A stretch of DNA of 64,000 nt. Origin: Carpediemonas membranifera BICM. Taxonomy: Eukaryota > Protista > Fornicata. The DNA lies in assembly GCA_019828565.1 (NCBI GenBank), contig JAHDYR010000033.1:1-64000 (forward strand), written 5' to 3'. Under the pieces are notes generated by a model. That model was not told the DNA's origin and ran no database searches. It was given only the letters and a program-made list of their open reading frames with translations. Positions within the stretch are counted from its first letter, which is position 1. Each line of letters begins with the position of its first letter. The translations under genes were made by a program, and so were the position numbers. Below, in pieces: positions 3,917-59,293 of this stretch.

Positions 3917-4003
3917 TGTTGTGGCCCCACATCATTTGATTGATCCTTTAAACTGCTTCCGTTCTTTATCCTTCGTAACCTTACCAAGGCAACATTGATA
4001 TCA

Positions 4004-22533: not shown

Positions 22534-23843
22534 CATGCAGTCAATTCTGGTACCTTTTCTGGAACAAATAGTTCCAGAATTGGTTCCAGAATGCCAGAAA
22601 AAATGGCATTTGCAAGAAAAACTAAACGCGTTCAAACAATTTAGCGACGCCTTGCCATGGGATGTAAAGCAATATGCAACTAATACTGGGCCCAAGGAAC
22701 GTTGATACGTACTGCTCTCATGAACTCACTCACTTTTCAGCAGAGCTCGACCAAAAACTAACAGAGGCTTGCCCGAGGTGTGCTTAAGCCAGCTCCAACT
22801 CTCTCTCAGTCTGTGACAGCTCCCCAAAAAAATTATTCTTGCTCAAAGTTGAGGTTTTCGGGAAATACTGCCAAAAAAGTTTGCTTCTGCTCAAGAACGG
22901 GGGATGCGCGTTGGATACCGACACCGTTACGTAACAGTTTAACATTCATTATAACAGCGCTAGCCTCCAGATTTCCTTGCGCACGCCTTTATCTGGAGAA
23001 AATAGCACAAACTTTCGCAAGCAAACGCAAATCGATAGAAAAATATGTTTCATGTCCAACGGAGCTAAAACTGAGCACAGTGTTATTCATCCTTCTATTC
23101 TACTAGTTTATCACTTCAAAAGGATCTGAACTTCAGTATTGATGGTGTTATAGGCACTGGTTCGGTTCGAGTCAAAACTGACTAAACTGTGACGACGGCT
23201 AGGTGTTGAAACATGCCATACTCACTCGTAGCGTGGCGCTTAATAGTGCCAGAATTGCTTCACTGCCACAAATCAATGGAGGTTCATGTTTGTGCATAAA
23301 GTACACAAACATGAGAAGACACGAATTCGTCACTGAATTAGAGACGATGCGCATAAGAATCAAAGATTTGGTTCAAATAGAGGAATACTACCTCTTTGCA
23401 GACGATATCGCGAAGGAATACCTTGATGTTGCGTCCATATACCTGATGAAGGCAATCCTACGTTCTCAGTGAGGCAACTAGCAAACATGAACCGTATCAA
23501 GAGACAAATATTGAAGCACTCCCCGTCCACATCATGTTTGATAAATTTTCTGGTGTCATTCTGCTGTTAATATCAGACAAGCAAACAACGTAGTGATGCG
23601 GAGAGACCGCGTGCTGCTAGAATACGCAGGGCATGATGCACCTGTTGATACCAGGAGCGCTGTCTGGTATGATGATTAATTGCAACGAACGCGATCACCG
23701 GAAATTACCTTACCTTACCTTACCTGCAGGTACCATGGGTGTTCGTTTTCGTCTCCAAACGCCATCGTGTAAGAGCATAAAGAGCATTTTCTGTTTACTG
23801 TGCCGTTGGGGGATTGATGGCGCTGGCGTAGGGGTGCTGTGTA

Positions 23844-24377
23844 GGCGCCAGGGATGAGGCGCCAGGATGAGGCGCCAGGGATGAGACGCCAGGGATGAGG
23901 GAGCCAAGATGAGGGCGCCAGGGATGAGGCGCCAGGGATGAGGCGCCAGGGATGAGGCGCCAGGATGAGGGAGCCAAGATGAGGGCGCCAGGGATGAGGC
24001 GCCAGGGATGAGGCGCCAGGGATGAGGGCGCCAGGGATGAGGCGCCAGGGATGAGGCGCCAGGGATGAGGCGCCAGGGATGAGGCGCCAGGGATGAGACG
24101 CCAGGGATGAGGCGCCAGGGATGAGACGCCAGGGATGAGACGCCAGGGATGAGACGCCAGGGATGAGGCGCCAGGGATGAGGCGCCAGGGATGAGGCGCC
24201 AGGGATGAGGCGCCAGGGATGAGGCGCCAGGATGAGGGAGCCAAGATGAGGCGCCAGGGATGAGGCGCCAGGGATGAGGCGCCAGGGATGAGGCGCCAGG
24301 GATGAGGCGCCAGGGATGAGGCGCCAGGGATGAGGCGCCAGGATGAGGGAGCCAAGATGAGGGCGCCAGGGATGAGG
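23844..24377. repeat. 14-bp minisatellite (GGCGCCAGGGATGA)n with a recurring GGATGAGGGAGCCAAGATGAG variant
   Basis: Read directly; shorter copy at 36377-36659. Confidence 0.95.
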
Positions 24378-24737
24378 AGTACAGTATTTGAACCCCGAAA
24401 ACGCCATATTACCAGCACCAATGAGCTTCATCAACGAAGATGCGCTCACTGGTGCCTGTTATGGCGTTTTCGGGGTCATCGACATTCTGCTCCCAAATCT
24501 GCACCTGTATTTTCGTGAGCATGCCCGGGAGCTGGGCCAGACGAGTGGTGCCACAGGGACTAAGCTCCGCTGCTCAGCCTCTGCCAGGCGACACTCGTCT
24601 GAATTCTGCACGAAAAAATTCAGACGACGAATGATGGGCAAAGGGCCGCGAAAACGCTGAAGTACCAGCGCAAGTAGAGCGGTTTGCAATAAAATAGCTT
24701 ACTTGCGCTGGTGCTGGCGTTTTCGGGGCCTGAATTG

Positions 24738-25940
24738 CCCCGGGCGCTCTCCAGGCTTCTCTCTCCCGGGCTCCTCTCTCCCGGGCGCTCTCCCGGGCTT
24801 CTCTCTCCCGCGCTCTTCTCCCCGGGCGCTCTCCCGGGCTTCTCTCTCCCGCGCTCCTCTCTCCCGGGCGCTCTCCCGGGCTTCTCTCTCCCGGGCTCTT
24901 CTCCCCCGGGCGCTCTCCCGGGCTCCTCTCTCCCGCGCTCTTCTCCCCCGGGCGCTCTCCCGGGCTCCTCTCTCCCGCGCTCTTCTCCCCCGGGCTCCTC
25001 TCCCCTGGGCTCCTCTCTCCCGGGCTCTTCTCCCCCGGGCGCTCTCCCGGGCTCCTCTCTCCCGCGCTCTTCTCCCCGGGCGCTCCCGGGCTTCTCTCCC
25101 GGGCTCTTCTCCCCGGGCGCTCTCCCGGGCTCCTCTCTCCGCGCTCTTCTCCCCGGGCTCCTCTCCTGAACTCCTCTCCCCGGGCTCTTCTCCCCGGGCG
25201 CTCCCGGGCTTCTCTCCCGGGCTCCTCTCTCCCCGAGAACTCTCGGGCTATCTCATCCCCGGGCTCCTCTCTCCCGGGCTCTTCTCCCCGGGCTCCTCTC
25301 CCGGGACTCATATCTCACGGGCTCTTCTCTCCCGGAGCTCTCCCGGGCTCTTCTCCCCGGGCTCCTCTCCCGGGCTCCTCTCTCCCGCGCTCTTCTCCCC
25401 CGGGCTCCTCTCCCCTGGGCTCCTCTCTCCCGCGCTCTTCTCCCCGAGGCTCCTCTCCATCTCCCGCTCTCCTCTCTCCCCGGGCTCTCTCCCCGGGCTT
25501 CTCTCCCCGGGCTCTTCTCCCCGGGCTCCTCTCTCCCGCGCTCTTCTCCCCCGGGCGCTCTCCCGGGCTCCTCTCTCCCGCGCTCTTCTCCCCCGGGCGC
25601 TCTCCCGGGCTCCTCTCTCCCGCGCTCTTCTCCCCCGGGCGCTCTCCCGGGCTCCTCTCTCCCGCGCTCTTCTCCCCCGGGCTCCTCTCCCCTGGGCTCC
25701 TCTCTCCCGCGCTCTTCTCCCCCGGGCGCTCTCCCGGGCTTCTCTCTCCCGGGCTCCTCTCTCCCGGGCGCTCTCCCGGGCTTCTCTCTCCCGGGCTCCT
25801 CTCTCCCGGGCGCTCTCCCGGGCTCCTCTCTCCCGCGCTCTTCTCCCCCGGGCTCCTCTCCCGGGCTCCTCTCTCCCGCGCTCTTCTCCCCCGGGCTCCT
25901 CTCCCCTGGGCTCCTGTCCCCAGCGCTGTTTCCCAGGCGC
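24738..25940. repeat. Pyrimidine-rich minisatellite of CTCTCTCCCGGG/CTCTTCTCCCCGGG variants
   Basis: Read directly; shorter copy at about 37021-37270. Confidence 0.95.
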
Positions 25941-28302
25941 TCTGCTCTCTCCAGCGTCCTCACTCGTAAATGTACGTTGCTGTCTTGTCTGCTTGATCTG
26001 ATTTCATTTAGTGTGCACTTTAGGGGATAGTTTCATTGCAACGCCAAAATGGCGAGTTCAGGTTGTAGCAATGATCTGATGCGCGGAACGTACTAGAAAA
26101 CATTGCAATTACAACGCAAAGCAGCGAAAAGCGGAGAAATCAACATCAATAACAACATCAACACCAAAAGAACAGTATCCCAAAGAATTGTGGGCGTTGC
26201 TGCGCCAAAGAGCAATAAATGACCACAAAGCATTCGCTTATGCACAATTAGCTGCCAGAAAGAACACTACACCGTTACTTTGGATCATTCCAGTTCGCCG
26301 GAGATGACGCAGGTCCAGAACGCTGCCTTGGAGGGCTGGTGAAGCGGTTGTGTAGCGCTTACTCGCCTGGCCTTTGGGGCTCTCTCAACATCCTTCCAGA
26401 CTACTGCATTGTCATTCACCGGAGGAGCAGGCCAGAGTCACTTGCCATCTGGCGCATCATGAGGAGATATTGGAATGTGATGATGTGTTTATTGACTAAA
26501 TGAGCTGGAATTAGGCGGGTTTGATGTTGCTTACATGTTCTGTGGCATGCCTGATGTCCAAAGATGTATTTTGGCACAGTGATGTTGTTTAGTGTGCTCA
26601 TTGCTGACCGCATAGTTATCTGACGTCAATGTGTCGTGTTGATGGCAAGAAATCGATGGTAGCTCGCACGTTTGAGGTAGTTGCTTGTTGCATCGATGCA
26701 ACGCACTTTAAGGATTAACCACCTGTACCCCATAGCCGTTTCCTAAGGCCAAATGCGGTCCTCTGTAGCGTATATACACGCGTGAATTGGGACTAGATGG
26801 GACTAGATGCAGTGTTGTGGCATGCCCGGTCTAGCTGAATCCACAAATGTGGATCGGCTCGGGCTGCCGTATAGGTGGCCTGCTCTGGACTTATGGCTGG
26901 AGATACAGTTGGCAGGTAGTTGACTCGTACATGCTCATATGGACAACCGACGGCCATTTACTTCTGGTGCTTTTCCTGCTCTCTCTTCTCCATCAGGTCG
27001 TCATACTCGGCCCTCGTCAGCCTCACAGTTGTCATCCCGGCATCACGGATGTGCTCAAAGGCCTCAACGGGCAGCTTCGGCATCCCGTCGTCGCTGTCGC
27101 TGCTGCTGCCGAAGTCTGACTCGCTCTCGTGATAGCGGCGAAGGCGAATGCGTCTGCTGGGCTCCCTGGCCTTCATAGAGTCATAGAGCGGAGCGAGCCC
27201 ACTTCCATTGGTCCCGCTACGGACACCCTCATCGGTATCTCTCTCAGACATATCACACTCAACCTGTTGTGACTGAACAAATGACAGGTTGTCGACGAGG
27301 CTATCCTCGGCATCGCTGTCTGAACTCTCCTCATCCTCCCACTCTCCTTCCAGCATCTCCAACCCGGCCTCATCGTCAGACTCGCCCTCCACCGCGGTCT
27401 CCGGCATCTCTGCCTCGCCAGCTGTCTCGTCAAACAGCGCCTCATCGTCAGACTCCCCCTCCCCCGTGTCGACCCCATCGGGATTACGCTGGTCGTGGAG
27501 CTGGACCATCCTAATCCTGAGCTTGTTGTAAAGCCAGTCATCGAGCGTCGGCGGCACCAGGTCGGCAGAGCTTCGGATCTCCGGGTTGAGATCGAGGATC
27601 GTTGGGCGTCGCGTGGTCGTTAAGTGACTGGACGCCAACTGGCGCCTGAACTGCTCATCGGTCAGGCTGATGCGCTTGTCCTTAATGACCTTACGAACCT
27701 TGGTCGGATCCCTGGGCCTGCCCGTCCGTCTCTGTGTCTCAATCACCCGCTTCTTGAGCTGATTGAGATCGACATGCACAGTGGGCGCATAGCGAAGCTG
27801 GTTAACACTCAGCCCGACCGACTTGAGAGCCTGCGAGAAGGTGCTAGGCATCACAGTGGACATCGTGGATGGTGCCCCGGTGAATAGCAACCAGTCAGCG
27901 AGTTCCGGGGGAATCTGGAGCTCGCTCACATCAATATCGCGGGCTGATGTGGCAGTCATGCCTGTGTGGCTGATGATAAGAGCCAGCGCATTGTAGGGGA
28001 AGACTAGTCGGACAATAGCTTCCGATGCGACAGGCTCAAACTGCCCAAGCGGCTTGACATTGTCTCTGCCGGAGTTTCGGAATGAGTTGACGGCACTGAG
28101 AGTGACAGCAGCGGTTGCCTTGCTCAATGATGCAGCAAAACCGGGCACAAGCGATCTAACCTCCTCGGGCCGGATCACGGAGAGCGCTTCGTCCTCGGTA
28201 CTCCCTCGCTCACGTTGTACGAATTGAACGAACCGCGAAAGGTTGTTTGCGGCCGCTTTCCGGGAAGATTTCTTGCTGATGGTGCACAACCAAGCATTCT
28301 TC

Positions 28303-31300
28303 CATACTGTCTCCGGGGGGGGTGAGGTACCCACCTCGAATGGGTACCTTACCCATGGGTAAGGTACCCAGTATCTTTAAAAAATTCATTAAAATTCGGT
28401 CAAGAGGTGGGTATGGTACCCATTTTTGCCCATTTTTCGACCAAATCTTCTTCCAATCTCAAGATTGAGCGTAGGAATATTTCTATAGATCTAGTAAAGG
28501 TTAGTTCAAGGCAAATAAGGACACGAGCTAGATCTATGGGAATATTCCAACGTACAATCGCGAGATATTAAAAAGATTCACTGGTTTTTGCGAGAATTGA
28601 GGCTGCTGCTCTGTAGGAAGTTCAGAAAGAGAGGAAACTTCTCCCATGAGTAGTACCTAACTATAGAAGTATCCTGAGGGTACAACTTTATTTATTTTTA
28701 TTTGCACTCACTTTGGATATTTCGAAAAAGACAGTATGCGCCGTGTCCGCATTCAGGCGTAGAGGAGGACTAGCACATCCATTTCCATTTAAATTAAACC
28801 TATTCCAAGCAATTCAATGAATGACTCGAGAAAGATTCAGTCGATTTATTTCCAAAGACGATGAAAATGAATACAAAGAGTCTTCGAACCTCGCGAAAAG
28901 AAACGAAAACAACATCAAACATCCACGCAGGCACTAAGAAGCCAATGTGCATCAAGATTCGCGCCATCAGTGGTTACTGACCGCGAACTATGCTGTTTGT
29001 GGCGAATGCAATCACAGCTTCTTCAATGATGCGAGAAGAACGCACAATTGCGTTCAGCTCTTTCGGTATGCGTGAATCGAGGTAAAGATTCTCATTAATG
29101 TGGTTAACCTCGGCAGCGACATCTTGAATGGACAAACACTTGGAAACAACGCGCATGCAGGCCGAAATCTCGCGATCACAAACGTTAAACGCCAGTTTGT
29201 GGCTGATCAGCTTTGAGCTATCACTTCTTTCTTCATATTGATCCATCTTGTCCGAATTGCGCACTTCTTTCTTCGGATTTACGAAAGGTCCCGATAAAGG
29301 AGCCTTCCGTCGGCTGAAGCGTGGAACTGTATCATATTACATACAATCGAGTAAATTCATAAACGGGTGTCTCGCCATAAATCCTTCTTTATATTCTTCA
29401 AACTTACTCATTGTCTGGCTGGAACCCACCAAATGACGGAATAGTAGGCTGTTTCCGTTTCTTGGCACTCTTCCTCGACTTCCCTGGGCGATAAGCCTCG
29501 TCATCAGACGAATCGTGACCAGCTCCCAAATGTTCGCATATACATACCGTGATTTCCACGGGATTACGCGGTTCCGTGCGCTTTGGTAACTGGCAGTGCA
29601 GCATACCATCGTCCCAGACTACCTGGCATGTCATCACATCCTGTGCCATTCTCGAGTCGAATGTTCGCCAGAACGTGGTGAGATCACGTTTCAGCTGGTC
29701 TAGACCTGCGTTCTCCAATGGATCCACACTCATTCCGCGCACCTTCTTCCACATCTGGGCACTCTTCACGCACTCATGTACATGCATGGCAACAAGTGTT
29801 CCCAGCGCCGGAATGCTGTGCTGTCTCCTGCCAGCGGACTCAGTCCTCAGCAACGCACGCTTGATGTACTTCGCCTGGGACATCAGACTGACGAGATGCA
29901 GAATTCGAGCTCTCTGAGCGCGTTGCTTCATCTCCATGTTGGGCAGGAATGATCGCTCAAAATGTTCCTCCAGCATGAACGTCAGAGGGAGCATAGTCTC
30001 CTGATGGATCAACGGAATGACTGCAACGGCAGCGTGCATCTTAAGGGTTATGACACAAGGCTTCTTCATTTCCGCACTCTTGGTCTTGGTGCGGTATGAG
30101 CCATCAGGGCAGATGCTCATTGCGGTGTGGAACGCGTGTATGACTGCGGCGGCGACCCAATGCCAGCGGATCAGCTCAGGGGTCGGGTCCTCCATCGAGT
30201 AGTAAAGATGCTGGAGGTGAGCGATGACACGGAAAAGCTCTCTCACACACTCTGGCACACACGTGATATGTGAGGTAGCCAGGACTGCCAGTCTTGCACG
30301 AGCTCTCTCTTGCTCGTTGCAGCCAACTGTTCTGACGAACTCAGTATTGCCGCTCTGCTGACGCCAGAAAGAGAGTTCTGGGTTGCGTGGTGGTTGTGGA
30401 AACATCTTAACCAGACACGCGACTTGCTCAAGGAGCTCATGGCTGGTGTGCATCAGCGGCGGGGCGACTGTTGTCAACTCGGCAAGAGCAGGGCTGTCCT
30501 GGAACAGAGGGATGAACTGATTCTCATCCCACTTGTACTTACCGTACCGGTGTTGAAGATCCAAGGTGATCCGATCCTTCTCTTTGATCCTCACTCGTCT
30601 GCCTGGGCCCAGTGTACTGCTCAGATGATCAATCTCTTGCTTTTGTGCCGCGTAGTACATCTGTCGGCGGAGGAGTAGGTCGGATAACTGCACAGAGATG
30701 ACCTTGTACTGTGGGTTGGCAGCGGCGATACGATCGCGTATGGTACTGAATCCATACGGGTTGGAAATGAACTCTGAATCACTGAGAACAGAAAACACAC
30801 ACCTGTTCTTGCCGCCGCGCATGGTTCCGAGCAGAACTTGGAGAGCCTTGTTGTCGGCCAGGGTATGGACGCGGCAAATTTGGGCAATAGCGCCAGTCTG
30901 CCGGACACAGAAGTGGAGGTTAACCAAGTTACTGATCTCCGCAGCAATACGGGGGTACAAAGATGGAATTTGGTCCTCGTGGCCGATGAACTCCAAGAGT
31001 GTGAAGACCCGGGTCAACTTCCCAGGAATGGCAATGCCCTCCTTGTCACCAAGCCTGAACTTAACTGCAGTAGTTCCATGCTTCCAGCCGTCAACCCACA
31101 GGCACAACTCAAGGTTGAAGACCCTGCCAGCCTCAACTTCGTCGTCCTTTGCGCATACCTCCAGACATGTCTTCCGAGCAGGCTTATCGGCAACAAATGC
31201 CATCGGACGAAGAAGGACCGAGGTGCATATGGCCTCACAGTCAAAGAAAACCGAACTAACAAAATCCCAGGGGTTGGGGGAAATAATTGTAGAGCGAAGT

Positions 31301-32575
31301 CCCTGCCGTCTATGAATCCTGTCGGCCCGGACAGTATCACGTGCCTGTTTCGCATCTATCGCGTCTGCATATAGTAGCTTGGTTGTCTGGCCAAAGCGGA
31401 CAGTGTCAGTCGGGGTGAGCTGCAGACGTTCCACGGTTGCGTCAATGAGCTCCTGCGAACCAATGAAATTGACGGTCTGACCGATAGGGACAGTCAGCCT
31501 GGAGCTGTCAGCTGTGACTGTGACGCCAGCCTCTTGGATGGCATACTCCACGGGAATGAAGCAAGACAGATCGGCCACCTCCTCCTCCGACAGTGCCTCG
31601 CGAAGGCCTGGGATATTGAGTATGCTCATGTCCAGCCCGGCAATCGGCTCCCGGCGCTTCTGAGTCCTTCCTATCGTGGGAATATAGGCCATTTTGGAGG
31701 TATGAGCGACCGGGAGGGGGGGAATGGGGGGCATTTATGGTATGGCTGGACTCTACTCGGGCAGACTATTATAACGAGGCTCAGACCAGACCTCTACGGC
31801 CGCTATACGAGGAGAAACGAGCCAGTAAGGGCACTAGCGGCCCATGGCCGCAGCAGCGCCCAGCCAAGCTCAGCTATAGGGTCACATGGGGCCCAAAATG
31901 ACGTGCTCATCAGGTCGACTCCCATCTATTGACTTGGTAATTGCAGAGGGCGTTTGAACGCGATGTCCTAATAACCGACTTGGTCGGAGCGGTTCGGCGA
32001 TGACTCCGTTGTATTTCAAGCCTTCTTCTGATGCCGAAACATGCAGTCCTTTTGAGTCAACGCGCGTCCTGTCCGTCAGGCATGAAGGGCATTCAGCAGA
32101 GGCATTGCTGCGGTCTGCAGGCCGCCCTAGCGCTTCAGGATGGCCAACTGCAGGATCTGGACCCATGTCTATCAAATCCATTTTGATCACATCAATGTGT
32201 CAAATCTGACGATTCGACGATGAAGCGTCAGGGACGTTTTCAGGGCGGCAGAAGCGGCTTGTAGACCTGTCATAGACCATAGAGCGATGACGCAGCATGT
32301 TTGTATTTTTTTGTCCGGTTGTTATATCTCCGCATGTATCAACGTAATTGCACTGGACTCACTCTACTGTTGCTATGTGAGTGTAGGGGACCGCGTGGGC
32401 AGCTCTAGAACAGTCATAGACCGGACTTGAGCTCTTGCAGGAAAAAAAACTGGCGGCCTTGGTTGGTGGTTTTTCGGGACCGTATCTAGAAAAGATTCGA
32501 GATACGGTGGGTACCTTACCCATGGGTAAGGTACCCATTCGAGGTGGGTACCTCACCCCCCCCGGAGACAGTATG
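28303..32575 (-). mobile_element. 4.27-kb TIR DNA transposon F, putatively autonomous
   Basis: Perfect 68-bp TIRs CATACTGTCTCCGGGGGGGGTGAGGTACC... at 28303-28370 and 32508-32575; 2-bp TSD TC (28301-28302/32576-32577); one long internal ORF. Confidence 0.92.
29404..31734 (-). CDS. DDE transposase, Chapaev/Transib/RAG1-like
   Basis: 776 aa with motifs in the expected order: LWVDGW, LADNKALQVLLG, NRCVFS, APPLMH, TLKMH, LEEHFERSF; basic C-terminus. Confidence 0.75.
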   Translation of the reverse strand: MPPIPPLPVAHTSKMAYIPTIGRTQKRREPIAGLDMSILNIPGLREALSEEEVADLSCFIPVEYAIQEAGVTVTADSSRLTVPIGQTVNFIGSQELIDATVERLQLTPTDTVRFGQTTKLLYADAIDAKQARDTVRADRIHRRQGLRSTIISPNPWDFVSSVFFDCEAICTSVLLRPMAFVADKPARKTCLEVCAKDDEVEAGRVFNLELCLWVDGWKHGTTAVKFRLGDKEGIAIPGKLTRVFTLLEFIGHEDQIPSLYPRIAAEISNLVNLHFCVRQTGAIAQICRVHTLADNKALQVLLGTMRGGKNRCVFSVLSDSEFISNPYGFSTIRDRIAAANPQYKVISVQLSDLLLRRQMYYAAQKQEIDHLSSTLGPGRRVRIKEKDRITLDLQHRYGKYKWDENQFIPLFQDSPALAELTTVAPPLMHTSHELLEQVACLVKMFPQPPRNPELSFWRQQSGNTEFVRTVGCNEQERARARLAVLATSHITCVPECVRELFRVIAHLQHLYYSMEDPTPELIRWHWVAAAVIHAFHTAMSICPDGSYRTKTKSAEMKKPCVITLKMHAAVAVIPLIHQETMLPLTFMLEEHFERSFLPNMEMKQRAQRARILHLVSLMSQAKYIKRALLRTESAGRRQHSIPALGTLVAMHVHECVKSAQMWKKVRGMSVDPLENAGLDQLKRDLTTFWRTFDSRMAQDVMTCQVVWDDGMLHCQLPKRTEPRNPVEITVCICEHLGAGHDSSDDEAYRPGKSRKSAKKRKQPTIPSFGGFQPDNE

Positions 32576-33853
32576 TCACGTCTTGCATGCTTGTTTCCAT
32601 CTCCCGCGGGCTTCCTTCCATCGATATACGGATTTCAGACTTTCGTCATGCACAAAAATTCGAATCTCTCCAAATGCCCAAAACAGTGGTCAAACCGTGT
32701 TCAGGGGTACAAAAGAGTGCCATAGGCACGTTCTTGCATTTCAAAATATTCTAGAGGTCGTTCATAAATTCTCAGATGGCCAACAGTACGAAAGTCTGAA
32801 ATCCATTTATCATGAGACCCGACAAATTTGAAATCCATTTATCGGGTGGATACATCACTGTAGAGGGTATTCATGGATATAGGTGCCTTTTCGGTGCCGA
32901 GGGGAGTCAACATTTGAGGTCGTGCAGGCAGAAAGTCTGAATTCCGTTTATCTCACCACTGCTTAGTGTTCATGGCAGACAACGGCTTCCTGGCGACGCC
33001 TGGGGTGTAAGGATTCGCTTGCCTCTGTGTTGTCGCATCAGCTTCGCTGAAAACGGGGGAACTGACCCGCGCATTCGCGCACTTTATGCTCGCAACGAGA
33101 TTGAAATGGCGAACTTAAGAATAGAAAGAATACTGGCGGCTTTAACGATACAGGCATGCACATATCACTAAGAAACATCAGTATGCGGGCGCAGAGCATC
33201 ATTAAAGCAACAATTATCTCTAAACAACATCAAGTACCAAAAGTCCATCAGGACGAAACGATATGACCTATAAATGGAGCACAGAGCAGTACAGATGATT
33301 TGAGAGTACCAGGCATGGCCAGAATACCGTAATTATCGTCCGTTCATCCACGTGACCTCCATCTTGGTCGGTATCCAGAGAACACCTGTCAGACGCTTGC
33401 AACGGAACATTTAGGGGGTGCATCCTAAATGGGTCCAGATTTGAGGCACCCTTGGTCTGACATGCCATGACCGAGCACTCTAGGGGCCTCCACAGTGCGT
33501 CCCGAGGTACGTTAGAGCACCACAGACCTTCCCCCAAAAGCTGACTCCTGGACCCCTTGGCCGGAGCTCGCCCGAAGCGTGCCTCGGCTTGAACTAACGG
33601 CAAGAGAGCATAAAATCAGCCCTTTCGAACCGTGTTTTATGCTCTGCTGCCGTTATAGAATTATTCAAAGGGCCCTCTCTTTGCGCTTTTTTCTGGTTCG
33701 TGGGACGAAGTAGGGACGGACAAAAAGCACATACGGAAGGTATTGGAGGTACTGAGGCCGCCTAGGTACATAGTTGCCGTGTGGATGGTTTCAGTTTATT
33801 ACTTTTGGCACTCTATGTCCATTTTTTATGCTCTCTTGCTGATAGTGCCGAAC

Positions 33854-35606
33854 ATGGACTTGCTAAAGTGGATTGAGAGCGCTAGCAAGGAACAGTACGA
33901 TGCGATATTGGCTGCATACACCAAGGCAACCACCAATCATGCCAAATGTGCTGTCCTTCGCGCGGTTTTGCTGGATGAACGGAAACTGCTCGATCTAGTC
34001 ATCAGGAAGCGTTTGTAGTCATAGCAATGCTTATATAGGAATCAACCTGAACCATATCACCACGAAATTCCGCCTCACGAAGGACGAGAAGGAGGAGCTC
34101 CAGGATAAGTTGAAGAAGCAGTTTATGGCACTCGCCGGACCAAGAAGTTCCAAGAAGCTCGGCGCGCTGGCGAAGTGGGTTGACGACAACCAGGCTGATA
34201 TCGTGTATAGCCAGGAGAAGCGCAAGGCGCGTAAGGCCATTATTGAGGCCATTGACGCCGAGGAGAAGGACAAGGGCAAGGGCAAGGCCGAGAGCGCTAA
34301 GAAAGAACCCGTCGACGATGAGAGTGGCGTGGACAGTGGTGAAGAGAGCGGCGTCGACGATTCTGAGTTGTGCGACAGTGAGAGTGAGGTGGACTTTGAC
34401 AACGAGTCCGACGATGAGATTAGAGAACGCGCGATCAAGCGCCGGCGCGAGAGAAAGATCGCCCAGAAGCTCAAGGAGTGGGAGGACAATAACGCTCGCA
34501 ACTACGTCCTGTGGCATAGAGTCCAGAAGGAGGTGCACGGCGAGCTTCGCATTCGCGCCTCTCGAGAGTCAGCTTCGGTTGCTGGGGACAACCACGTCGA
34601 CGTCCAGTTCGACAGATACCTTCGCGTATCCAAGCTGCTCGAAATGAAGGACTGGATTCACAAAGACCTCCCATCTCTTCCGATGGAGGCACGAGTGCTC
34701 CATCACAAGGCGCAGAAGAGAGTACTCGAGCTGGAGGAGACCGTCACGAGGCTGCTGCAAGACGTGGGGTACGCAGCTGACATCTCCATGGGTGCCAGCC
34801 CGACACCCGCGCCGTTTCGCCGCGACCTACCCCAGTCGGGCACACACCAAGCACGAACGAGTACCCCCCGCCGTACGGGGAAGAGCGACACAATCCACAT
34901 GAAGCGCAAGGCCCTCATGACAATCCCTCAGAAGATCGCTGATGTCGATAGCAACTCAGAGGAGTCAGACGAGGAGGAGATGGTGACAGAGGAGAAGAAG
35001 CGCGAGGCACACGAGGAGGTGGTGACAGAGGAGAGGAAGGGTGAGTCACATGAGGAGGACGTGACCAAATGCGACGCCTGCATCCAGACTGAGCCGGAGA
35101 CTCAGACTCGCATCACCTCTGAGGCCGCGGTGCAGACGTGCATCAACGCGGAGGCTCTCACGGCTGGCTGTACCGCGATTCATGTCAAGAGTGACGGCAA
35201 CTGCGTTGCATATTGTCTCCAAGCCATTGAGTTGGGTGGCAGAGTTGATGGCGACTTCGAAAGGTGGCAGCGTGGCCTCTGCCAGTCAGTGAAGGCCAAG
35301 TACTGGTCTAAGAAGAATTTCACGGAGCGTAGCCTGACAGATCCGGACTCCGGCTACTATAACTCGAACGCCATCCGAGTCTGGGCGAGGAAACAGAAGC
35401 GGAACATCCTTGTTGTCCAGTCATACGACGGATACAACGGCATGCAAGGCATCTCCGCCATCTTATACCTGTTTGATGGCACCACCATGCTTGCACCCGA
35501 TGCAGACTTGTGGGGGTTGACAGATAATTTCGCTATTGTCATCGAAGGCGATCCGGCTCACGCCACGCTGTACCAGAAGAAGTGCGAGGTCGTTGAGATT
35601 GAATAA
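33854..35606 (+). CDS. Lys/Glu-rich protein with C-terminal OTU-like cysteine protease domain; 28-nt intron 34011-34038
   Basis: MDLLKWIE...IRKR spliced to INLNHITTKF; IHVKSDGNCVAYCL (OTU DGNC motif) and distal DPAHATLY His. Confidence 0.6.
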
Positions 35607-35721
35607 AGATTTGGATATGCCCGTGTAGCCAGCGGTTCATGACCTGCAGCAGACATTTGGACGTACAGCGGGATACCACATCAATTAGGTCACTTGCGGG
35701 CTAAGATTGTCGTTGTCGATC

Positions 35722-37887
35722 GTCATTCACCGGAGGAGCAGGCCAGAGTCACTTGCCATCTGGCGCATCATGAGGAGATATTGGAATGTGATGATGTGTT
35801 TATTGACTAAATGAGCTGGAATTAGGCGGGTTTGATGTTGCTTACATGTTCTGTGGCATGCCTGATGTCCAAAGATGTATTTTGGCACAGTGATGTTGTT
35901 TAGTGTGCTCATTGCTGACCGCATAGTTATCTGACTTCAATGTGTCGTGTTGATGGCAAGAAATCGATGGTAGCTCGCACGTTTGAGGTAGTTGCTTGTT
36001 GCATCGATGCAACGCACTTTAAGGATTAACCACCTGCACCCCATAGCCGTTTCCTAAGGCCAGATACGGTCCTCTGTAGCGTATATACACGCGTGAATTG
36101 GGACTAGATGGGACTAGATGCAGTGTTGTGGCATGATCTGCAAGATCGACCAGCCCCTGGATCACTTGGGCCTGCCTCCGTGCCCGGCCTGTTGCGATCA
36201 ATGATGGTGATTACTTGCAACGAACGCGATCACCGGAAATTACCTTACCTTACCTTACCTGCAGGTACCATGGGTGTTCGTTTTCGTCTCCAAACGCCAT
36301 GGTGTAAGAGCATAAAGTGCATTTTCTGTTTACTGTGCCGTTGGGGATTGATGGCGCTGGCGTAGGGGTGCTGTGTGGGCGCCAGGGATGACGGCGCCAG
36401 GGATGAGGCGCCAGGGATGAGGCGCCAGGATGAGGCGCCAGGGATGAGGCGCCAGGGATGAGGCGCCAGGATGAGGGAGCCAAGATGAGGGCGCCAGGGA
36501 TGAGGCGCCAGGGATGAGGCGCCAGGGATGACGGCGCCAGGGATGAGGCGCCAGGGATGACGGCGCCAGGGATGAGGCGCCAGGGATGAGGCGCCAGGGA
36601 TGAGGCGCCAGGATGAGGCGCCAGGATGAGGAGCCAAGATGAGGGCGCCAGGGATGAGGAGTACAGTATTTGAACCCCGAAAACGCCATATTACCAGCAC
36701 CAATGAGCTTCATCAACGAAGATGCGCTCACTGGTGCCGGTTATGGCGTTTTCGGGGTTCGTCGATCATTCTGCTCCCAAATCTGCACCTGTATTTTTCG
36801 TGAGCATGCCCGGGAGCTGGGCCAGACGAGTGGTGCCACAGGGACTAAGCTCCGCTGCTCAGCCTCTGCCAGGCGACACTCGTCTGAATTCTGCACGAAA
36901 AATTCAGACGACGAATGATGGGCAAGGGCCGCGAAAACGCTGAAGTACCAGCGCAAGTAGAGCGGTTTGCAATAAAATAGCTTACTTGCGCTGGTGCTGG
37001 CGTTTTCGGGGCCCTGAATTGCCCCGGGCGCTCTCCCAGGCTTCTCTCTCCCGGGCTCCTCTCTCCCGGGCGCTCTCCCCGGGCTTCTCTCCCGGGCTCC
37101 TCTCTCCCGGGCGCTCTCGGGCTCTCTCCCGGGCGCTCTCCCGGGCTCCTCTCTCCCGCGCTCTTCTCCCCCGGGCTCCTCTCCCCTGGGCTCCTGTCCC
37201 CAGCGCTCTTCTCCCCCGGGCTCTATCCTCCGGGGCTCCTGTCCCCAGCGCTGTTTCCCCAGGCGCTCTGCTCTCTCCAGCGTCCTCACTCGTAAATGTA
37301 CGTTGCTGTCTTGTCTGCTTGATCTGATTTCATTTAGTGTGCACTTTAGGGGATAGTTTCATTGCAACGCCAAAATGGCGAGTTCAGGTTGTAGCAATGA
37401 TCTGATGCGCGGAATGTACTAGAAAACATTGCAATTACAACGCAAAGCAGCGAAAAGCGGAGAAATCAACATCAATAACAACATCAACACCAAAAGAACA
37501 GTATCCCAAAAGAATTGTGGGCGTTGCTGCGCCAAAGAGCAATAAATGACCACAAAGCATTCGCTTATGCACAATTAGCTGCCAGAAAGAACACTACACC
37601 GTTACTTTGGATCATTCCAGTTCGCCGGAGATGACGCAGGTCCAGAACGCTGCCTTGGAGGGCTGGTGAAGCGGTTGTGTAGCGCTTACTCGCCTGGCCT
37701 TTGGGGCTCTCTCAACATCCTTCCAGACTACTGCATTGTCATTCACCGGAGGAGCAGGCCAGAGTCACTTGCCATCTGGCGCATCATGAGGAGATATTGG
37801 AATGTGATGATGTGTTTATTGACTAAATGAGCTGGAATTAGGCGGGTTTGATGTTGCTTACATGTTCTGTGGCATGCCTGATGTCCA
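35722..37887. repeat. Second repeat block Y-Z-X-Y' with contracted minisatellites
   Basis: Near-identical to 26411-26824 and 23669-26560. Confidence 0.93.
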
Positions 37888-38251
37888 GAGGATACCCCTC
37901 AGAGGTGACAGTGCAACACCCGAAATTTTGTCTATACACGTCATATACAAGGTCTAATGCATCTTTGCCAACCACTTTTAGCGTTTGTATGTGTCAGACG
38001 ATCGAGTTCTGAAGAGCGACTTTGGCCAAGTCATGCGACCTTATCCTGCACTGACGATACGAAAACCGATCATAAATATTTATTGAGACATCTGCATGCA
38101 GTATTAATGTGTCCAGAGGTGAAGCTAGGTCTATAGAGTACGCACGCCAACTTTACTACTGATCCGCGAGATTCGATCAAAATCGATCAAAGAAACTGGA
38201 ACCAATTCTGGAACTATTTGTTCCAGAAAAGGTACCAGAATTGACTGCATG

Positions 38252-39588
38252 AGGGCAGCAGTCCGATCTCTACCATCTGGCTGTAACCAAAACTGACTTC
38301 GTACGCAGTTTTGAGAACGAAAGCGCGGATCTTCAGCTCGCAGCCACGTGGCGTGAAGGGAGATGGCCTCAACGTGATCTGCACCGATACGGTGCCTTCA
38401 GCTTCTCGTATTCCACCTGCCGTTTGGATGCGTACAGTATCGTGGTTGATCCTGGTAACGGCTGGCGAGGAGCACAGATCGGGAGATATCGTGGCACAGT
38501 CAGCACCAGAGTCTAGTAAGACCTTCACTTCGGCCTTCTCGATGACTCCATTGACTACAGGCAACGACCCTCCACCTGACGCAGCGGAAAATAAACACTT
38601 CGCCCCGTTTACTGGGGACTTAAAACGACAGAACTTCTCGAGGTGACCCTGCTTCTTGCAAACCGGGCATGTGGCACGATCCCGCGGGCACTTGAAGGAT
38701 GGATGGCCCGTCTCGCCGCAGTTGTAGCACACCAGCTCGCGCTTGCCCTCTCCTCGTTGGTTCGGGGCTCTTGCGGCTGGCTTATCCTGATGATGAGGCT
38801 TGGCGATTGGCTTGGGGGCGGGATGGGTGGGTTCGTGGTGAAGACCGCGATGGGGTTTGCCCGACTTAGCCTTGGTTGACGACTGCTTGTCGGTCATTCC
38901 GATGGAACGCAGCATGGCACGGGATTCCTCGATATCGCGAGCGATATCAATCACCCGCGGCATAGCCAGTTCGAGGGAGAAGCCTTCGGTGAGATCCTTA
39001 ACCTTGTACTGAACGCGCGAATTATCGGGTAGCTTAAAGCAACGCGCGTAGGTGTCGCAGAGGATCTCAGAGTCTACCCCGGGATCAACAAGGGAGAGGA
39101 GGGTTCTGAACCGTCGGTTCACTCGAACCACCTCCTGCGGAGTAAAAGGACGAGATGGAGAGACGGAACAAGTCGAGACGGGCAGAAAAACGGGACGGTT
39201 GCAGTGCTCTACCGAGCCGCTTGAGGACGCGGTCGTCTTTAGCGAGACGCTTGGCCTTGCGCTTACGCTTGTGCGTCTTTCGGACAGCTGCGGTTAGGAT
39301 GAGGGACTGCTGGAGGGGTTGCTCGTCGTCTTTAGGCGTTCCGGCTACTGGTGAACCTTCATCGTTCACGGGGACAGAGGCCTCAGCCGAGGGGATGGCT
39401 TCAGAGGCCTTGGCGAAGAGGTTAAAGCCGAGAGCGTCAGCGTACCGTTGGACTTCGGTGTCAATCATGTCGGCAACGTCGGCATCACCGCCTTTGGCTC
39501 GGTACTCGGACAAATCCTCGGCGAATCGGACTAACGACTCAATGGTCGTCTTCTTTAGCATAGGCATATTGTTATAGAGCGTCATCAA
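38252..39588 (-). CDS. Element D gag-protease (one frameshift near 39100)
   Basis: Two CCHC knuckles CYNCGETGHPSFKC and CPVCKKQGHLEKFC; LLDSGAD protease. Confidence 0.93.
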
Positions 39589-40281
39589 AACGTGGAATAC
39601 TAGTATTGTGGTTCGTTTGACGAACTATGTTTACAAGAGGAGAAGACTCGACACAATGGTGTCGAGGAGAAACTCCTTGACTAACTAATATCATATATAA
39701 ATCTGTGTAATCTTGGGTGAGACCCATGACACTGGATCACCCGACGGCTGTGGCACCCCTCGAGGCGCTGGCTCGTCGTCGCCGCTGGCGATGATGATCC
39801 CCATCTGATCGGGACCTTAGCACGTCCTAAACTATAAACTGCTGTCTGAGAAGCTTGATGTTGCTTAATTGAGACTAATGGACCGCTTGCGAGGAAGAAT
39901 CCCGTCGAAGATCCGAAGCTTTCGTGAAAGTTCTTGTATCTCGCCAACGAGGGCCTATTGAGGCCAATGGAGGTCATTTTCAGCACCTAGGAGCTCTTTA
40001 GCTCAATAACCTCCTTCAATGGAGTTGTTCGTCTTCACGCTCAACTATCTAATCAAACCATCGCATTTGATGGGTTTCGGATGAAATATCATAGACCAGT
40101 CCTCGCCGCCGCGCCCGTTACTCGTGGTCGTTACCACTGGGAGGGAAGTGTCAGCGCGGCACTTCAATCAAATATTTATTTGATTGATGATCCGATCCGA
40201 TCCCCGGGCAGGGTCCCGAATCGTCTTTTTGTTTTGCTTGTAAAGCTTCACCCCCCGTTTCGTCTGCGAAACGAACAGGGC

Positions 40282-48523: not shown

Positions 48524-49624
48524 ATGCTGCAGCAGTTCGAGCCATTCGAGTTCCCTGCCCATCGACTGGGGTCGGGTGCCTTTGGAGCCGTGTACCGGGC
48601 CCGACACCGCGTCGACCAGACGTACTACGCCGTGAAGGTGGTCAATCTGATGATGAAAACGCCGATCACTGAAAACGCAGTCGCAAAGTTCGTCTCTGAC
48701 GTCCGCGAGCGAATCATGCGCGAGGTCGACGCGCTCTCTCGCTTGAGCCACCCGAACGTACTACGGTACTTCTCATCGTGGGTCGACCCGCCCAGCCTGC
48801 TCCACCAGAAGTCGACCAAGCTACAGGCCAAGATACAGGTCCAGCCCGCCGCACGGAAGGCCATCATGAACCGACTCGCGGAGTTCCAGACCCAGGCGTT
48901 CAGTGACAGCGAGAGCGACACCGAGTCCGAGACGTCGACCACGTCTTACTCCTGCACCTCCAGCGCGGGGACGGTAACCGGGGGAAACGTCGTCGCCACA
49001 ACGGATGGCACGCCGCGCAGAGTCAAGATCGGCCGCGTGTTCATCCAGACGGAGCTGTGCAGCGGGACTCTCGAGGAGTGGAGCGGCGACCCGACAATCC
49101 TGCGAGGCTACCTGCGGGATATCCTCAACGGGCTCGCCCACATCCACGCCAAGGGCTTCACCCACAGAGACGTCAAGCCTGCCAACATCTTCCTCACTTG
49201 CGACCCACCCCGCGCAGTTTTAGGTGATCTGGGTCTCACGGCGTCGCTGGCCACCATCTACGACCCCTTTGAGGGCCACCACTGTCACGCCACGAGTGGG
49301 GCCGGGACACCGAGGTACATGGCGCCCGAGCAGACTGGGACGAGCTACGGTCCGCCTGTCGACATCTGGGCATTCGGGGTGATGCTCATCGAACTCACTC
49401 TGAAGCCGAAGACGAACTTTGAGCTGAAAGAGGCTGTCCGGACGATCAACACGGACGCACCCTTCTACGGCCCCGACTTTGAGTTCCACGGGCTGGTCAA
49501 GCGGTGTCTGCAGGTGGACCCCGAGAACCGGCCGACTGCGCAGGACCTGCTGAGGGATGATTTCTTCAGCATGGAGGCCGAGCTCATGAGTCTCCGGCAG
49601 CGGGTGGCGGAGCTCACTGGGTAG
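48524..49624 (+). CDS. eIF2-alpha kinase-family protein kinase, 5'-truncated duplicate
   Basis: LGSGAFGAVY, YAVK, HPNVLRYFSSW, S/E-rich kinase insert, FIQTELC, HRDVKPANIFL, GDLGL, GTPRYMAPEQ. Confidence 0.85.
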   Translation: MLQQFEPFEFPAHRLGSGAFGAVYRARHRVDQTYYAVKVVNLMMKTPITENAVAKFVSDVRERIMREVDALSRLSHPNVLRYFSSWVDPPSLLHQKSTKLQAKIQVQPAARKAIMNRLAEFQTQAFSDSESDTESETSTTSYSCTSSAGTVTGGNVVATTDGTPRRVKIGRVFIQTELCSGTLEEWSGDPTILRGYLRDILNGLAHIHAKGFTHRDVKPANIFLTCDPPRAVLGDLGLTASLATIYDPFEGHHCHATSGAGTPRYMAPEQTGTSYGPPVDIWAFGVMLIELTLKPKTNFELKEAVRTINTDAPFYGPDFEFHGLVKRCLQVDPENRPTAQDLLRDDFFSMEAELMSLRQRVAELTG

Positions 49625-50612
49625 GGGCAGGCTGGTCGGTCTGCTTGCTCGCTCGTGTCTATGCGTACAATAATAATGATGATAAATGACGACACGTTTG
49701 ATGGAGTGGTTTCGGGTGGCTTGGACAGAAGGTTGGTGTTCTCGGTTGAACGGGGAGTTATCTATGCATGCGTATGATCAGAGATCGCCATTTGTCGTCT
49801 TGGTACCCGGCGTCACACTCACTCTGAGGCGATCTCCCTCATTCGTGCGGAGTCCCTCAGCTGCACCACAGGAGATGTCGGGGTGCCCGATGATAAGACT
49901 GAACTGAGATTGACGGACGCTGTGACATCAGGTCTCAGGCATACTTGCCTCTGTGGATGCTGGGCAACGGTACCACCCAATGCCTGCAACCGATGAAAGG
50001 GTCTATCGAATGGCCGTAAATCACCCGAAAACTGGCGCAATAGCTCAAGCGGCCTTGGAGATAGACGGCGTTGGCAACCCTGAATCGCTATGACCCTGGC
50101 GCGGGTTTGCGCCATTTTTGCGCGTGAGGGTTCGCGAGCACTTTAATGCACGAGAATGTGTCTTCGGGCCCATTCTCGTGGAAGTGCGGCGCTGTGAGCT
50201 ATATGATCGCAGAACGGCTATCTGTTCCGTCTCCTCTGACAATCATACTTCCTATATCGATACTGGGTCGCAGGTTCCCGCGAGGTGAACTTCCCCACGT
50301 TGCCAGGTGTATCTCAGGGCTTTGTGGTTAGAGTATATTACTCCTTGACCAGGTTAAGCCAAAACCCACCGGGTATACGTTAGTTAACAACATCAAGTGC
50401 CGGACTACGTTTCTCAAGATCAAGAAGGATGAGCACGCGTGGGCGACCGAGCCTGCGCCGTGATGGTCTGCTGGCCGAAGCTGCCCTTCCAGCATGCCTC
50501 CGCGCGCACTGCACAGTAAACAATTTCGCCACCATCCTTGTCTGAATTTCAAGGGGTTGCTGGTCGGCAGGCAGCGTATGCAATTGGCAGCAACACTGCT
50601 TGGCGTCAGTGA
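48524..50612. repeat. 2.09-kb segmental duplication (partner 56969-59056)
   Basis: Near-identical sequence and ORF tracks. Confidence 0.95.
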
Positions 50613-56443: not shown

Positions 56444-58068
56444 ATGCAAAATCTCAGCGTGAGCTCCTCAATGATCGAATGGGGCGAGGACAGCTTCGAG
56501 GGCGAAGCTTTCAGCGATATTGAGTCTGTGCTGCCCGATAACCAGGAAAGAAAGGACGATGAGGTGGCATTTGATTCTGGTGACCTTGTCGTGTTCTCAG
56601 AGAAGTGCAGGGAGCTCAACTGCGACGCCACCCTCGAGTGCCTCCCTGAAAACATCATCTCTGAAATGAAGCGCTTCTCCCTTCAACCCGGCGACATCCT
56701 CCTGCTGTCTCTGCTCGACATCCACTTTGAGTACAACTCCGAGGCTGTTCACCGCGCCTTCCAAGCTGTCCGCCACTCCGACATGGCCAGCATTAATGCC
56801 GGCCACCTCCCCATGCTCCGGCGCCTATACGCCCCCGTCCTCAGCTCCGCAGTGCGAGCGCCGTTTGAGGTCGTCCAGGAGGTCCTGAAGCAGACGTACA
56901 ACGTCTCGCCCAGCCACCTGCCGCTCAGGGACATGCGGGAGCCGGCCCCTCTCCGGAAGGACGTCGGGATGCTGCAGCAGTTCGAGCCATTCGAGTTCCC
57001 TGCCCATCGACTGGGGTCGGGTGCCTTTGGAGCCGTGTACCGGGCCCGACACCGCGTCGACCAGACGTACTACGCCGTGAAGGTGGTCAATCTGATGATG
57101 AAAACGCCGATCACTGAAAACGCAGTCGCAAAGTTCGTCTCTGACGTCCGCGAGCGAATCATGCGCGAGGTCGACGCGCTCTCTCGCTTGAGCCACCCGA
57201 ACGTACTACGGTACTTCTCATCGTGGGTCGACCCGCCCAGCCTGCTCCACCAGAAGTCGACCAAGCTACAGGCCAAGATACAGGTCCAGCCCGCCGCACG
57301 GAAGGCCATCATGAACCGACTCGCGGAGTTCCAGACCCAGGCGTTCAGTGACAGCGAGAGCGACACCGAGTCCGAGACGTCGACCACGTCTTACTCCTGC
57401 ACCTCCAGCGCGGGGACGGTAACCGCGGGGACGTCGTCGCCACAACGGATGGCACGCCGCGCAGAGTCAAGATCGGCCGCGTGTTCATCCAGACGGAGCT
57501 GTGCAGCGGGACTCTCGAGGAGTGGAGCGGCGACCCGACAATCCTGCGAGGCTACCTGCGGGATATCCTCAACGGGCTCGCCCACATCCACGCCAAGGGC
57601 TTCACCCACAGAGACGTCAAGCCTGCCAACATCTTCCTCACTTGCGACCCACCCCGCGCAGTTTTAGGTGATCTGGGTCTCACGGCGTCGCTGGCCACCA
57701 TCTACGACCCCTTTGAGGGCCACCACTGTCACGCCACGAGTGGGGCCGGGACACCGAGGTACATGGCGCCCGAGCAGACTGGGACGAGCTACGGTCCGCC
57801 TGTCGACATCTGGGCATTCGGGGTGATGCTCATCGAACTCACTCTGAAGCCGAAGACGAACTTTGAGCTGAAAGAGGCTGTCCGGACGATCAACACGGAC
57901 GCACCCTTCTACGGCCCCGACTTTGAGTTCCACGGGCTGGTCAAGCGGTGTCTGCAGGTGGACCCCGAGAACCGGCCGACTGCGCAGGACCTGCTGAGGG
58001 ATGATTTCTTCAGCATGGAGGCCGAGCTCATGAGTCTCCGGCAGCGGGTGGCGGAGCTCACTGGGTAG
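56444..58068 (+). CDS. eIF2-alpha kinase-family kinase with N-terminal extension; frameshift near 57425
   Basis: Same kinase motifs as the 48524 copy; 1 nt shorter at ACCGCGGGGACG versus ACCGGGGGAAACG. Confidence 0.8.
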
Positions 58069-59293
58069 GGGCAGGCTGGTCGGTCTGCTTGCTCGCTCGT
58101 GTCTATGCGTACAATAATAATGATGATAAATGACGACACGTTTGATGGAGTGGTTTCGGGTGGCTTGGACAGAAGGTTGGTGTTCTCGGTTGAACGGGGA
58201 GTTATCTATGCATGCGTATGATCAGAGATCGCCATTTGTCGTCTTGGTACCCGGCGTCACACTCACTCTGAGGCGATCTCCCTCATTCGTGCGGAGTCCC
58301 TCAGCTGCACCACAGGAGATGTCGGGGTGCCCGATGATAAGACTGAACTGAGATTGACGGACGCTGTGACATCAGGTCTCAGGCATACTTGCCTCTGTGG
58401 ATGCTGGGCAACGGTACCACCCAATGCCTGCAACCGATGAAAGGGTCTATCGAATGGCCGTAAATCACCCGAAAACTGGCGCAATAGCTCAAGCGGCCTT
58501 GGAGATAGACGGCGTTGGCAACCCTGAATCGCTATGACCCTGGCGCGGGTTTGCGCCATTTTTGCGCGTGAGGGTTCGCGAGCACTTTAATGCACGAGAA
58601 TGTGTCTTCGGGCCCATTCTCGTGGAAGTGCGGCGCTGTGAGCTATATGATCGCAGAACGGCTATCTGTTCCGTCTCCTCTGACAATCATACTTCCTATA
58701 TCGATACTGGGTCGCAGGTTCCCGCGAGGTGAACTTCCCCACGTTGCCAGGTGTATCTCAGGGCTTGGTGGTTAGAGTATATTACTCCTTGACCTGGTTA
58801 AGCCAAAACCCACCGGGTATACGTTAGTTAACAACATCAAGTGCCGGACTACGTTTCTCAAGATCAAGAAGGATGAGCACGCGTGGGCGACCGAGCCTGC
58901 GCCGTGATGGTCTGCTGGCCGAAGCTGCCCTTCCAGCATGCCTCCGCGCGCACTGCACAGTAAACAATTTCGCCACCATCCTTGTCTGAATTTCAAGGGG
59001 TTGCTGGTCGGCAGGCAGCGTATGCAATTGGCAGCAACACTGCTTGGCGTCAGTGAGGCCCCTAACTCTACCCATACAAGGCATTTCTCCTCTCGCTAAG
59101 CCCTCATGATATGATGCAGTCAATCACAATCTGCAGAATCACCTCTTGTAGTTAGACTGGCCTCTAGGGACAGCAATATATGTCCTAATGCGCTAGCTCG
59201 GATATTATTGTCGATCATCTGATCCAGATCTGCACTCGGATATCTGGTTCATTTTTTCGAAGTCATTCGAAATCGAAGCAGGAGTGCAATATT

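Follow-up and report, generated by a model that had tools for sequence, protein, structure and literature searches.

Introduction

The CMCT clade of transposons comprises EnSpm/CACTA, Mirage, Chapaev, Transib, Plavaka, ESTA as well as Lanisha, with CA..TG termini in most cases, target site duplications (TSDs) of 2-5 bp, and a C(2)C and an H(3-4)H motif common to all lineages; within it, the ends of PlavakaB read CATCA..TGATG and its TSDs are 2 or 3 bp long (Kojima, 2025, PMC12730594). For CMC elements, TSDs of 2-4 bp are given, and TSDs and termini are described as varying even within Transib (2026 preprint, 10.64898/2026.08.26.747230). RAG1 and Transib share a DDE transposase core with a large insertion, D600 and E962 being catalytic residues of RAG1 (PMC4914335); the hallmark of Chapaev is the Chapa zinc finger, two of its subgroups also having RING (PMC4411706); and P elements make 8-bp TSDs and carry an N-terminal THAP domain and a D(2)H motif (PMC3698922). 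Here we describe an element that invites comparison with all of these, found in the first 64,000 nucleotides (forward strand; hereafter the window) of contig JAHDYR010000033.1 in the genome assembly of the free-living anaerobic protist Carpediemonas membranifera BICM (GCA_019828565.1). We consider it likely that the element is an inverted-repeat transposon of 4.3 kb whose insertion into a multicopy gene duplicated 2 bp, and that it carries a 5'-truncated gene for a transposase with a predicted CMCT fold (RAG1/Transib/CACTA), from a likely undescribed lineage without the C2H2 zinc motif.

A recent insertion into a multicopy gene

The transposon occupies positions 28303-32575 (4,273 bp) and displays the features of a cut-and-paste DDE element with terminal inverted repeats (TIRs), namely the repeats themselves and a flanking duplication. 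Its boundaries and the gene that it interrupts are as follows:

28303..28370, no strand: TIR arm at the 3' end of the transposase gene, starting CATACTGTC
32508..32575, no strand: TIR arm at the 5' end of the transposase gene, an identical inverted copy of 28303..28370
28301..28302, plus strand: left copy of the TSD, TC
32576..32577, plus strand: right copy of the TSD, TC
26958..28302, minus strand: 3' part of the disrupted target gene (from codon 16)
32576..32621, minus strand: 5' part of the disrupted target gene (first 15 codons)

The two arms, which a preceding sequence-only reading of this DNA had described as perfect 68-bp TIRs, are indeed 100% complementary over 68 nt and reach ~76 nt if one gap is admitted; when the 7-kb region was base-shuffled 100 times, perfect inverted repeats reached at most 18 nt. 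Both ends of the element are formed by CATACTGTC (CAT..ATG) and are flanked by TC on either side, and the TIR contains repeated 14-17-nt motifs centred on GGTACC as well as a 30-nt palindrome (28341-28370). This is a real TIR element and a recently mobile one, present at more than one locus: a second C. membranifera copy, encoding the 912-residue protein KAG9391999.1 (hereafter P0001), lies on a contig of 175,664 bp, and the window genes on one of 224,368 bp. No further copies of the TIR were found within the window, and no flanked loci of the element in metagenome contigs (scanned with a protein pattern and with 19 nt of the TIR, the latter giving 0 matches), prokaryote contigs or viral contigs. 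An imperfect 51-nt subterminal inverted repeat (78%) is also found within the 3' end of the element, at 28444-28578.

The target gene is multicopy, the 333-residue fragment in the window forming a cluster of six with five other proteins of 297-462 residues. To fix the duplication, 12 symmetric end positions were combined with 13 removed lengths and scored against the N-terminus of one of these paralogues, P0003. Ends at 28303/32575 with TC removed recover 15 of the 15 N-terminal residues of P0003, and this is the sole duplication reading that restores the target protein; one reading without duplication, with one extra base per end, gives the same net sequence. The rebuilt open reading frame (ORF) is free of stops and encodes 462 amino acids, 447 of them identical to P0003, and because the TC reading rebuilds it, the net insertion consists of the unit delimited by the TIRs and of exactly 2 bases that were duplicated. 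A TA duplication of the Tc1/mariner kind restores none of the 15 residues and an AT duplication just one, and both were rejected. The TC duplication and the restored Met-initiated frame had already been proposed from the sequence; the Met is a weak argument by itself, and it is the comparison with the uninterrupted paralogue that provides independent support.

A transposase family without the clade's zinc motifs

Two features describe the coding region:

29404..31734, minus strand: 776-residue ORF with a predicted RAG1-like DDE core (D215, D294, E593) and H653-x-C655 and C731-x-C733, without CxxC and Hx3-4H
31678..31734, minus strand: first 19 codons of this ORF, non-homologous to the family, marking the break where a 155-residue N-terminus is missing

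This ORF (31734-29404) is the only long one in the element and is free of stops and frameshifts. Every motif named in the sequence-only reading was located in it, in the proposed order, at residues 213-217, 293-298, 310-315, 425-432, 564-570 and 588-594. A phmmer search over 1.84 billion representatives (E ≤ 0.001) collected 18 relatives, of which C. membranifera accounts for 10 and ENA, NCBI, JGI and Logan records for 8, none of them with an animal, plant or fungal name. Counting cluster members, the family has 17 C. membranifera proteins, most pairs of which are 21-32% identical. The family tree is a quick, unfinished and unrooted one with long branches, contains family members only and serves for description.

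Motif counts refer to 13 rows: the window protein and, of the 17 other proteins that alignment A6 contains, the 12 left once the near-duplicates P0015, P0027, P0028, P0034 and P0035 were dropped (A6 itself omitted P0001, P0022-P0026, P0029, P0031-P0033, P0036 and P0037). D215, D294, E589, E590, E593 and R594 are each conserved in 12 of the 13 rows, the missing row being a fragment, and H429, C472 and E474 in all 13. By contrast with the CMCT pattern, neither CxxC after the second Asp nor H-x3-4-H before the Glu occurs in any row (0/13 each), so that the degenerate zinc site noticed earlier in the single protein proves to be family-wide. Remnants are nonetheless visible: the first Cys of CxxC in 6 of the 12 rows with residues at this position, three rows having a second Cys 5-6 residues on, and the first His of H-x3-4-H in 8 of 13. 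The family has motifs of its own, RTxxCxE and a C-terminal HxC..CxC (H653 in 11/12 rows, C655 in 12/12, C731-x-C733 in 11/11), and the latter may bind zinc. A distant member of 1,316 residues from a JGI record, P0025, has a Cys-rich C-terminal tail without counterpart in the other members.

The family is likely undescribed so far. No published work on such a Carpediemonas transposon was found by title or abstract start, a search whose scope excluded Repbase and most subscription journals, where a prior entry is possible; the string 'transpos' is absent from the main text of the C. membranifera genome paper (PMC8516963), and a word search of the supplement to Kojima (2025, PMC12730594) for 'carpediemonas' gave no hit.

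A predicted RAG1-like fold

Folding from the single sequence gave an unusable model (pLDDT 34), while an alignment-based AlphaFold model of ORF residues 150-742, built with 18 sequences, reached a pLDDT of 80.8 and a pTM of 0.85. The model follows the order of elements of an RNase H fold: D215 lies on the first of three strands, D294 ends the fourth strand, and E593 sits in the helix that follows a long helical insertion between D294 and E593. The transposase is thus predicted to have an RNase H fold with conserved D, D and E.

When the model was searched with Foldseek, all 42 hits at E ≤ 0.001 among the matches listed were RAG structures, with E-values of 1.2e-8 for RAG1 (TM-score 0.45) and 3.3e-4 for BbRAG1L, and HzTransib came next at 1.2e-3; in a viral fold library there was no match at E ≤ 0.001. 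A VIA structural comparison against 48,161 chains likewise placed RAG1 first (Z 13.6, root-mean-square deviation (rmsd) 5.9, 399 residues aligned, model residues 8-484 on RAG1 550-1005), with BbRAG1L at Z 13.1, HzTransib at 9.8, ISCth4 at 7.2 and unrelated rows at 6 or below. Judging by offsets from the ends of the aligned ranges, D215 of the model would fit RAG1 D600, and E593 would fit E962. Structural matching bears little on model residues beyond ~488, that is, on the region of the C-terminal HxC..CxC. Among the ESM Atlas neighbours of the core, with scores of 0.89-0.92, are clusters of Plavaka (0.92), Transposase_21 (0.91) and RAG1 (0.91), which supports the CMCT clade without resolution inside it. 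The proposal of a divergent protist transposase related to RAG, and with it the RNase H prediction that AlphaFold and Foldseek were suggested to check, is therefore upheld by the Atlas, Foldseek and VIA matches.

No structures of CACTA, Mirage, Chapaev or Plavaka transposases appear in the structural match lists, so the top rank of RAG1 is no evidence of a particular affinity with it. To our knowledge, no structure from any of these four lineages has been solved.

Placement among known transposon lineages

The element is like CMCT transposons in its CA..TG termini, its 2-bp TSD and the predicted RAG1-like architecture of its transposase, and unlike them in that its family lacks C(2)C after the second D and H(3-4)H before the E and has no similarity to them at the level of hidden Markov models (HMMs). 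As it works like a CMCT transposon but lacks both motifs, we file it as CMCT-like, outside any named lineage.

Chapaev and Chapaev3 elements have CAC ends and 4- or 3-bp TSDs. The element shares with them the broad catalytic clade and one large ORF between the TIRs, but its family is without a Chapa zinc finger or RING, and in alignments including full-length P0001 or the relatives no conserved Cys or His, and thus none of the Chapa or RING type, is found N-terminal to the first Asp. The label 'Chapaev' given to it by the sequence-only reading is accordingly not retained, no Chapaev-specific feature having been found. RAG1, BbRAG1L (ProtoRAG) and HzTransib (PDB 4wwx, 6b40 and 6pqn) provide the best structural matches, over RAG1 residues ~550-1005, and the DDE core with a large insertion is a further likeness (PMC4914335); yet sequence identity to these proteins is 12-13% and the ZnB ligands C727/C730/H937/H942 have no full counterpart in the protein of the element. 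It also differs from Transib and RAG elements in its TSD (2 bp against the usual 5 bp) and in having no CAC end, no CACAATG-like terminus and no RAG2-like gene inside.

The same sequence-only reading had taken the CAT ends as non-canonical and the 2-bp TSD as unusual. Both are ordinary, because they fall within the published CMCT range (CA..TG, 2-5 bp) and PlavakaB has both, with CATCA ends and TSDs of 2-3 bp (PMC12730594). This likeness also feeds the best-surviving alternative, in which the family would belong to one of the named CMCT lineages, with Plavaka (PlavakaB) or EnSpm/Mirage the most likely, and would have evolved fast, its zinc ligands decaying in this host group. The ends of the element start with CAT as in PlavakaB, although bases 4-5 differ (the fourth giving CATA in the element and CATC in PlavakaB), its TSD lies within the 2-4 bp of CMC elements (10.64898/2026.08.26.747230), and Plavaka is the top named Atlas cluster (93% Plavaka, 0.92), the whole protein leading to a cluster that is 34% Plavaka. 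Yet the Atlas scores of the Plavaka, EnSpm and RAG1 clusters are just 0.01 apart, none of the 19 members matches the Plavaka (PF18759) or Transposase_21 Pfam families even at E ≤ 1, none of the 18 phmmer relatives bears a fungal, plant or animal name, the host is a protist, and Plavaka retains both C(2)C and H(3-4)H (PMC12730594). We therefore find membership of a named lineage rather unlikely.

Several points weigh against our own placement in a separate CMCT-like lineage with a 2-bp TSD. The sequence itself provides no link to a named lineage, as Pfam gave no match for the ORF and chance-level matches only among the 19 members, and sequence searches of the PDB returned nothing or coiled-coil noise. 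The VIA match to P transposase (Z 12.2, with a lower rmsd of 4.3 over 289 aligned residues) comes close to that of RAG1, the Atlas neighbours share just 141-170 of 256 features, and AlphaFold may favour folds from its training. The 2-bp TSD comes from a single insertion site (n=1), and the flank hairpin chemistry suggested below would be by analogy only.

A recently truncated transposase gene

In a word-index protein search, P0001 was the sole match to the window ORF, and shorter proteins gave none. Residues 20-776 of the ORF correspond to residues 156-912 of P0001, with 756 of 757 identical, and the break is abrupt, lying directly ahead of sequences that are 99.9% identical. A tblastn search of the 64-kb window with P0001 residues 1-155 found nothing, and whichever frame of the element is read, it holds not one six-residue word of this N-terminus, while the control recovered 142 of 149 7-mers. 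An N-terminal HMM built from 12 relatives, from which P0001 was excluded although it was present in the source alignment, recognizes P0001 residues 1-155 at an E-value of 4.5e-12, the best value in the window being 0.99, and the P0001 N-terminus aligns with P0014 from residue 6. Because it is homologous along its length to the N-termini of other members, this N-terminus is ancestral; being ancestral and absent here, it points to a recent loss of the 5' coding part by the window copy, with the first 19 codons fortuitous. On sequence comparison, the window ORF is a 5'-truncated derivative, open but not intact. The earlier description of one intact 776-residue ORF thus holds for the open frame and its length, and not for its intactness, since the ~155-residue N-terminus of the family is missing and the first 19 residues are foreign.

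Two other accounts of the difference were rejected: P0001 is not a spurious gene fusion, its N-terminus being homologous to those of other members, and the N-terminus is not hidden in short upstream exons, as no six-residue word of it is found in any frame. It is also conceivable that the element is intact and autonomous, the 776-residue protein being a natural short form and P0001 a longer variant or fusion. The perfect TIRs, the open frame, the full set of catalytic residues and the 214 residues that remain ahead of D215 would suit such a short form, and the relatives P0011, P0021 and P0035 are likewise annotated without the N-terminal region, which also tempers the reading as a truncation. 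We nevertheless hold an intact element to be unlikely, in view of the ancestral N-terminus, the abruptness of the break and the absence of any trace of the missing part, which short introns cannot hide.

Relation to P elements and rank of the family

A kinship of the transposase with P elements, or a lineage between P and CMCT with CAT ends and no C2H2 site, seems very improbable to us: P-element ends also begin with CAT, P transposase (PDB 6p5a) shares the RNase H core with a helical insertion (the VIA match at Z 12.2 and rmsd 4.3), and the invariant H429 might equal the His of D(2)H, but the 8-bp TSD, the THAP domain and D(2)H of P elements were not found in the window element (which has a 2-bp TSD) or the family, Pro rather than Asp stands three residues before H429, P is absent among the Foldseek matches listed, the RAG1 alignment is longer by 110 residues, and the remnant first Cys (6/12) and first His (8/13) sit at RAG1-like positions.

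The preferred reading, a likely undescribed CMCT-like lineage, has a bolder form that we regard as possible but doubtful. The family would then be a superfamily-level branch of the RAG fold that belongs to none of the seven named CMCT lineages, may stand between these and P, and radiated into at least 8 Carpediemonas subfamilies; the ZnB C2H2 site found from CACTA to RAG1 would have been replaced by the invariant H429, C472 and E474 together with the C-terminal HxC..CxC, and the branch would still be active although Ku and DNA-PKcs are reported to be missing from its host.

Transcripts and introns

A further ORF lies within the element:

28974..29246, minus strand: 90-residue ORF, overlapped by one RNA-run contig (28846-29266)

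The RNA run in question, X1, behaves as RNA of C. membranifera, with GT..AG joints and poly(A), and its contig, a single one of depth 4, matches 28846-29266 without differences. The RNA-like character of the run and this exact match make transcription of the 3' part of the element family likely, whether as a 3' untranslated region or as the 90-residue ORF. The X1 contigs do not span the transposase ORF and carry no weight on its expression.

The stop codon of the transposase ORF lies inside a donor-like GTAAGT site, and a candidate 94-nt intron (29407-29314, minus strand) would fuse a downstream small ORF to it, adding 113 residues; the joint is not spanned by any contig, and the relatives are all without a tail of this kind. 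In host genes between 44869 and 62193 there are seven introns or gaps, all short (28-85 nt), with GT(T/A)(T/C)GT donors.

Genomic neighbourhood

The neighbourhood of the element is rich in retroelements and repeats, and the window's encoded proteins fall into clusters with named C. membranifera proteins. A non-LTR (long terminal repeat) reverse transcriptase/endonuclease fragment and several nested Gypsy-like elements are found in 374-22631 and 38214-40278, and identical pairs of 78-130 nt occur at 3917/13414, 8354/13237, 13688/40149 and 17969/39607, two of which span the entire 18-40-kb block. Further downstream, a 2.1-kb duplication with a protein kinase (48524-50612 and 56969-59056) is 99.8% identical, its second copy being apparently frameshifted.

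The target gene and a divergent multicopy ORF of 493 residues (34125-35606) sit between long direct repeats, within region 23669-37890. The 493-residue ORF had no match in a Pfam search and has what we take to be an OTU-protease-like DGNC motif. Of the direct repeats, 23669-26563 is similar to 36204-37890, and 26408-26824 corresponds to 35719-36135 at 98.8%; they contain tandem arrays, and the same type of array breaks up the transposase relative P0023. The whole region may be a mobile unit, so far undescribed, whose direct repeats are split. Between the two divergent multicopy genes lie short repeats, inverted and direct (32623-32952 and 33593-33846), which are possibly binding sites or the ends of small elements.

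Mechanism and implications

Matched ends, a net 2-bp duplication, an acidic triad conserved in the family and at least two recent copies are the observations on which a mechanism can be built. By analogy with RAG1 and Transib, a transposase dimer would pair both TIRs, probably via the repeated GGTACC-centred motifs; each end would be nicked and the element released, leaving hairpinned flanks; and the 3' ends of the element would be joined to target strands 2 bp apart, with gap filling giving the TSD. Probably the window copy either owed its mobilisation to a sister of full length, for which P0001 is an example, or was inserted complete and soon afterwards lost the 5' coding part. Non-homologous end joining (NHEJ) is reported to be lacking in the host group, with Ku and DNA-PKcs missing and alternative end joining present (PMC8516963), so that repair of the donor site would use alternative end joining or recombination.

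What gives the finding its value is that the family, apparently uncatalogued, lacks the zinc motif of its clade; its ends and TSD length add little to this. For the CACTA-Transib-RAG1 clade as a whole, the ZnC2/ZnH2 site is taken to be a signature, and a recently mobile family that lacks it lends itself to testing the role of zinc in DNA melting, hairpin formation and target capture. Coming from a poorly sampled eukaryotic group, the family is also a possible outgroup for RAG1 evolution, and its 2-bp stagger on a RAG-like scaffold offers a point of comparison for the way in which TSD length is set by target bending. If these enzymes hairpin their flanks as RAG does, a pathway other than NHEJ would have to open and repair the hairpins in this host.

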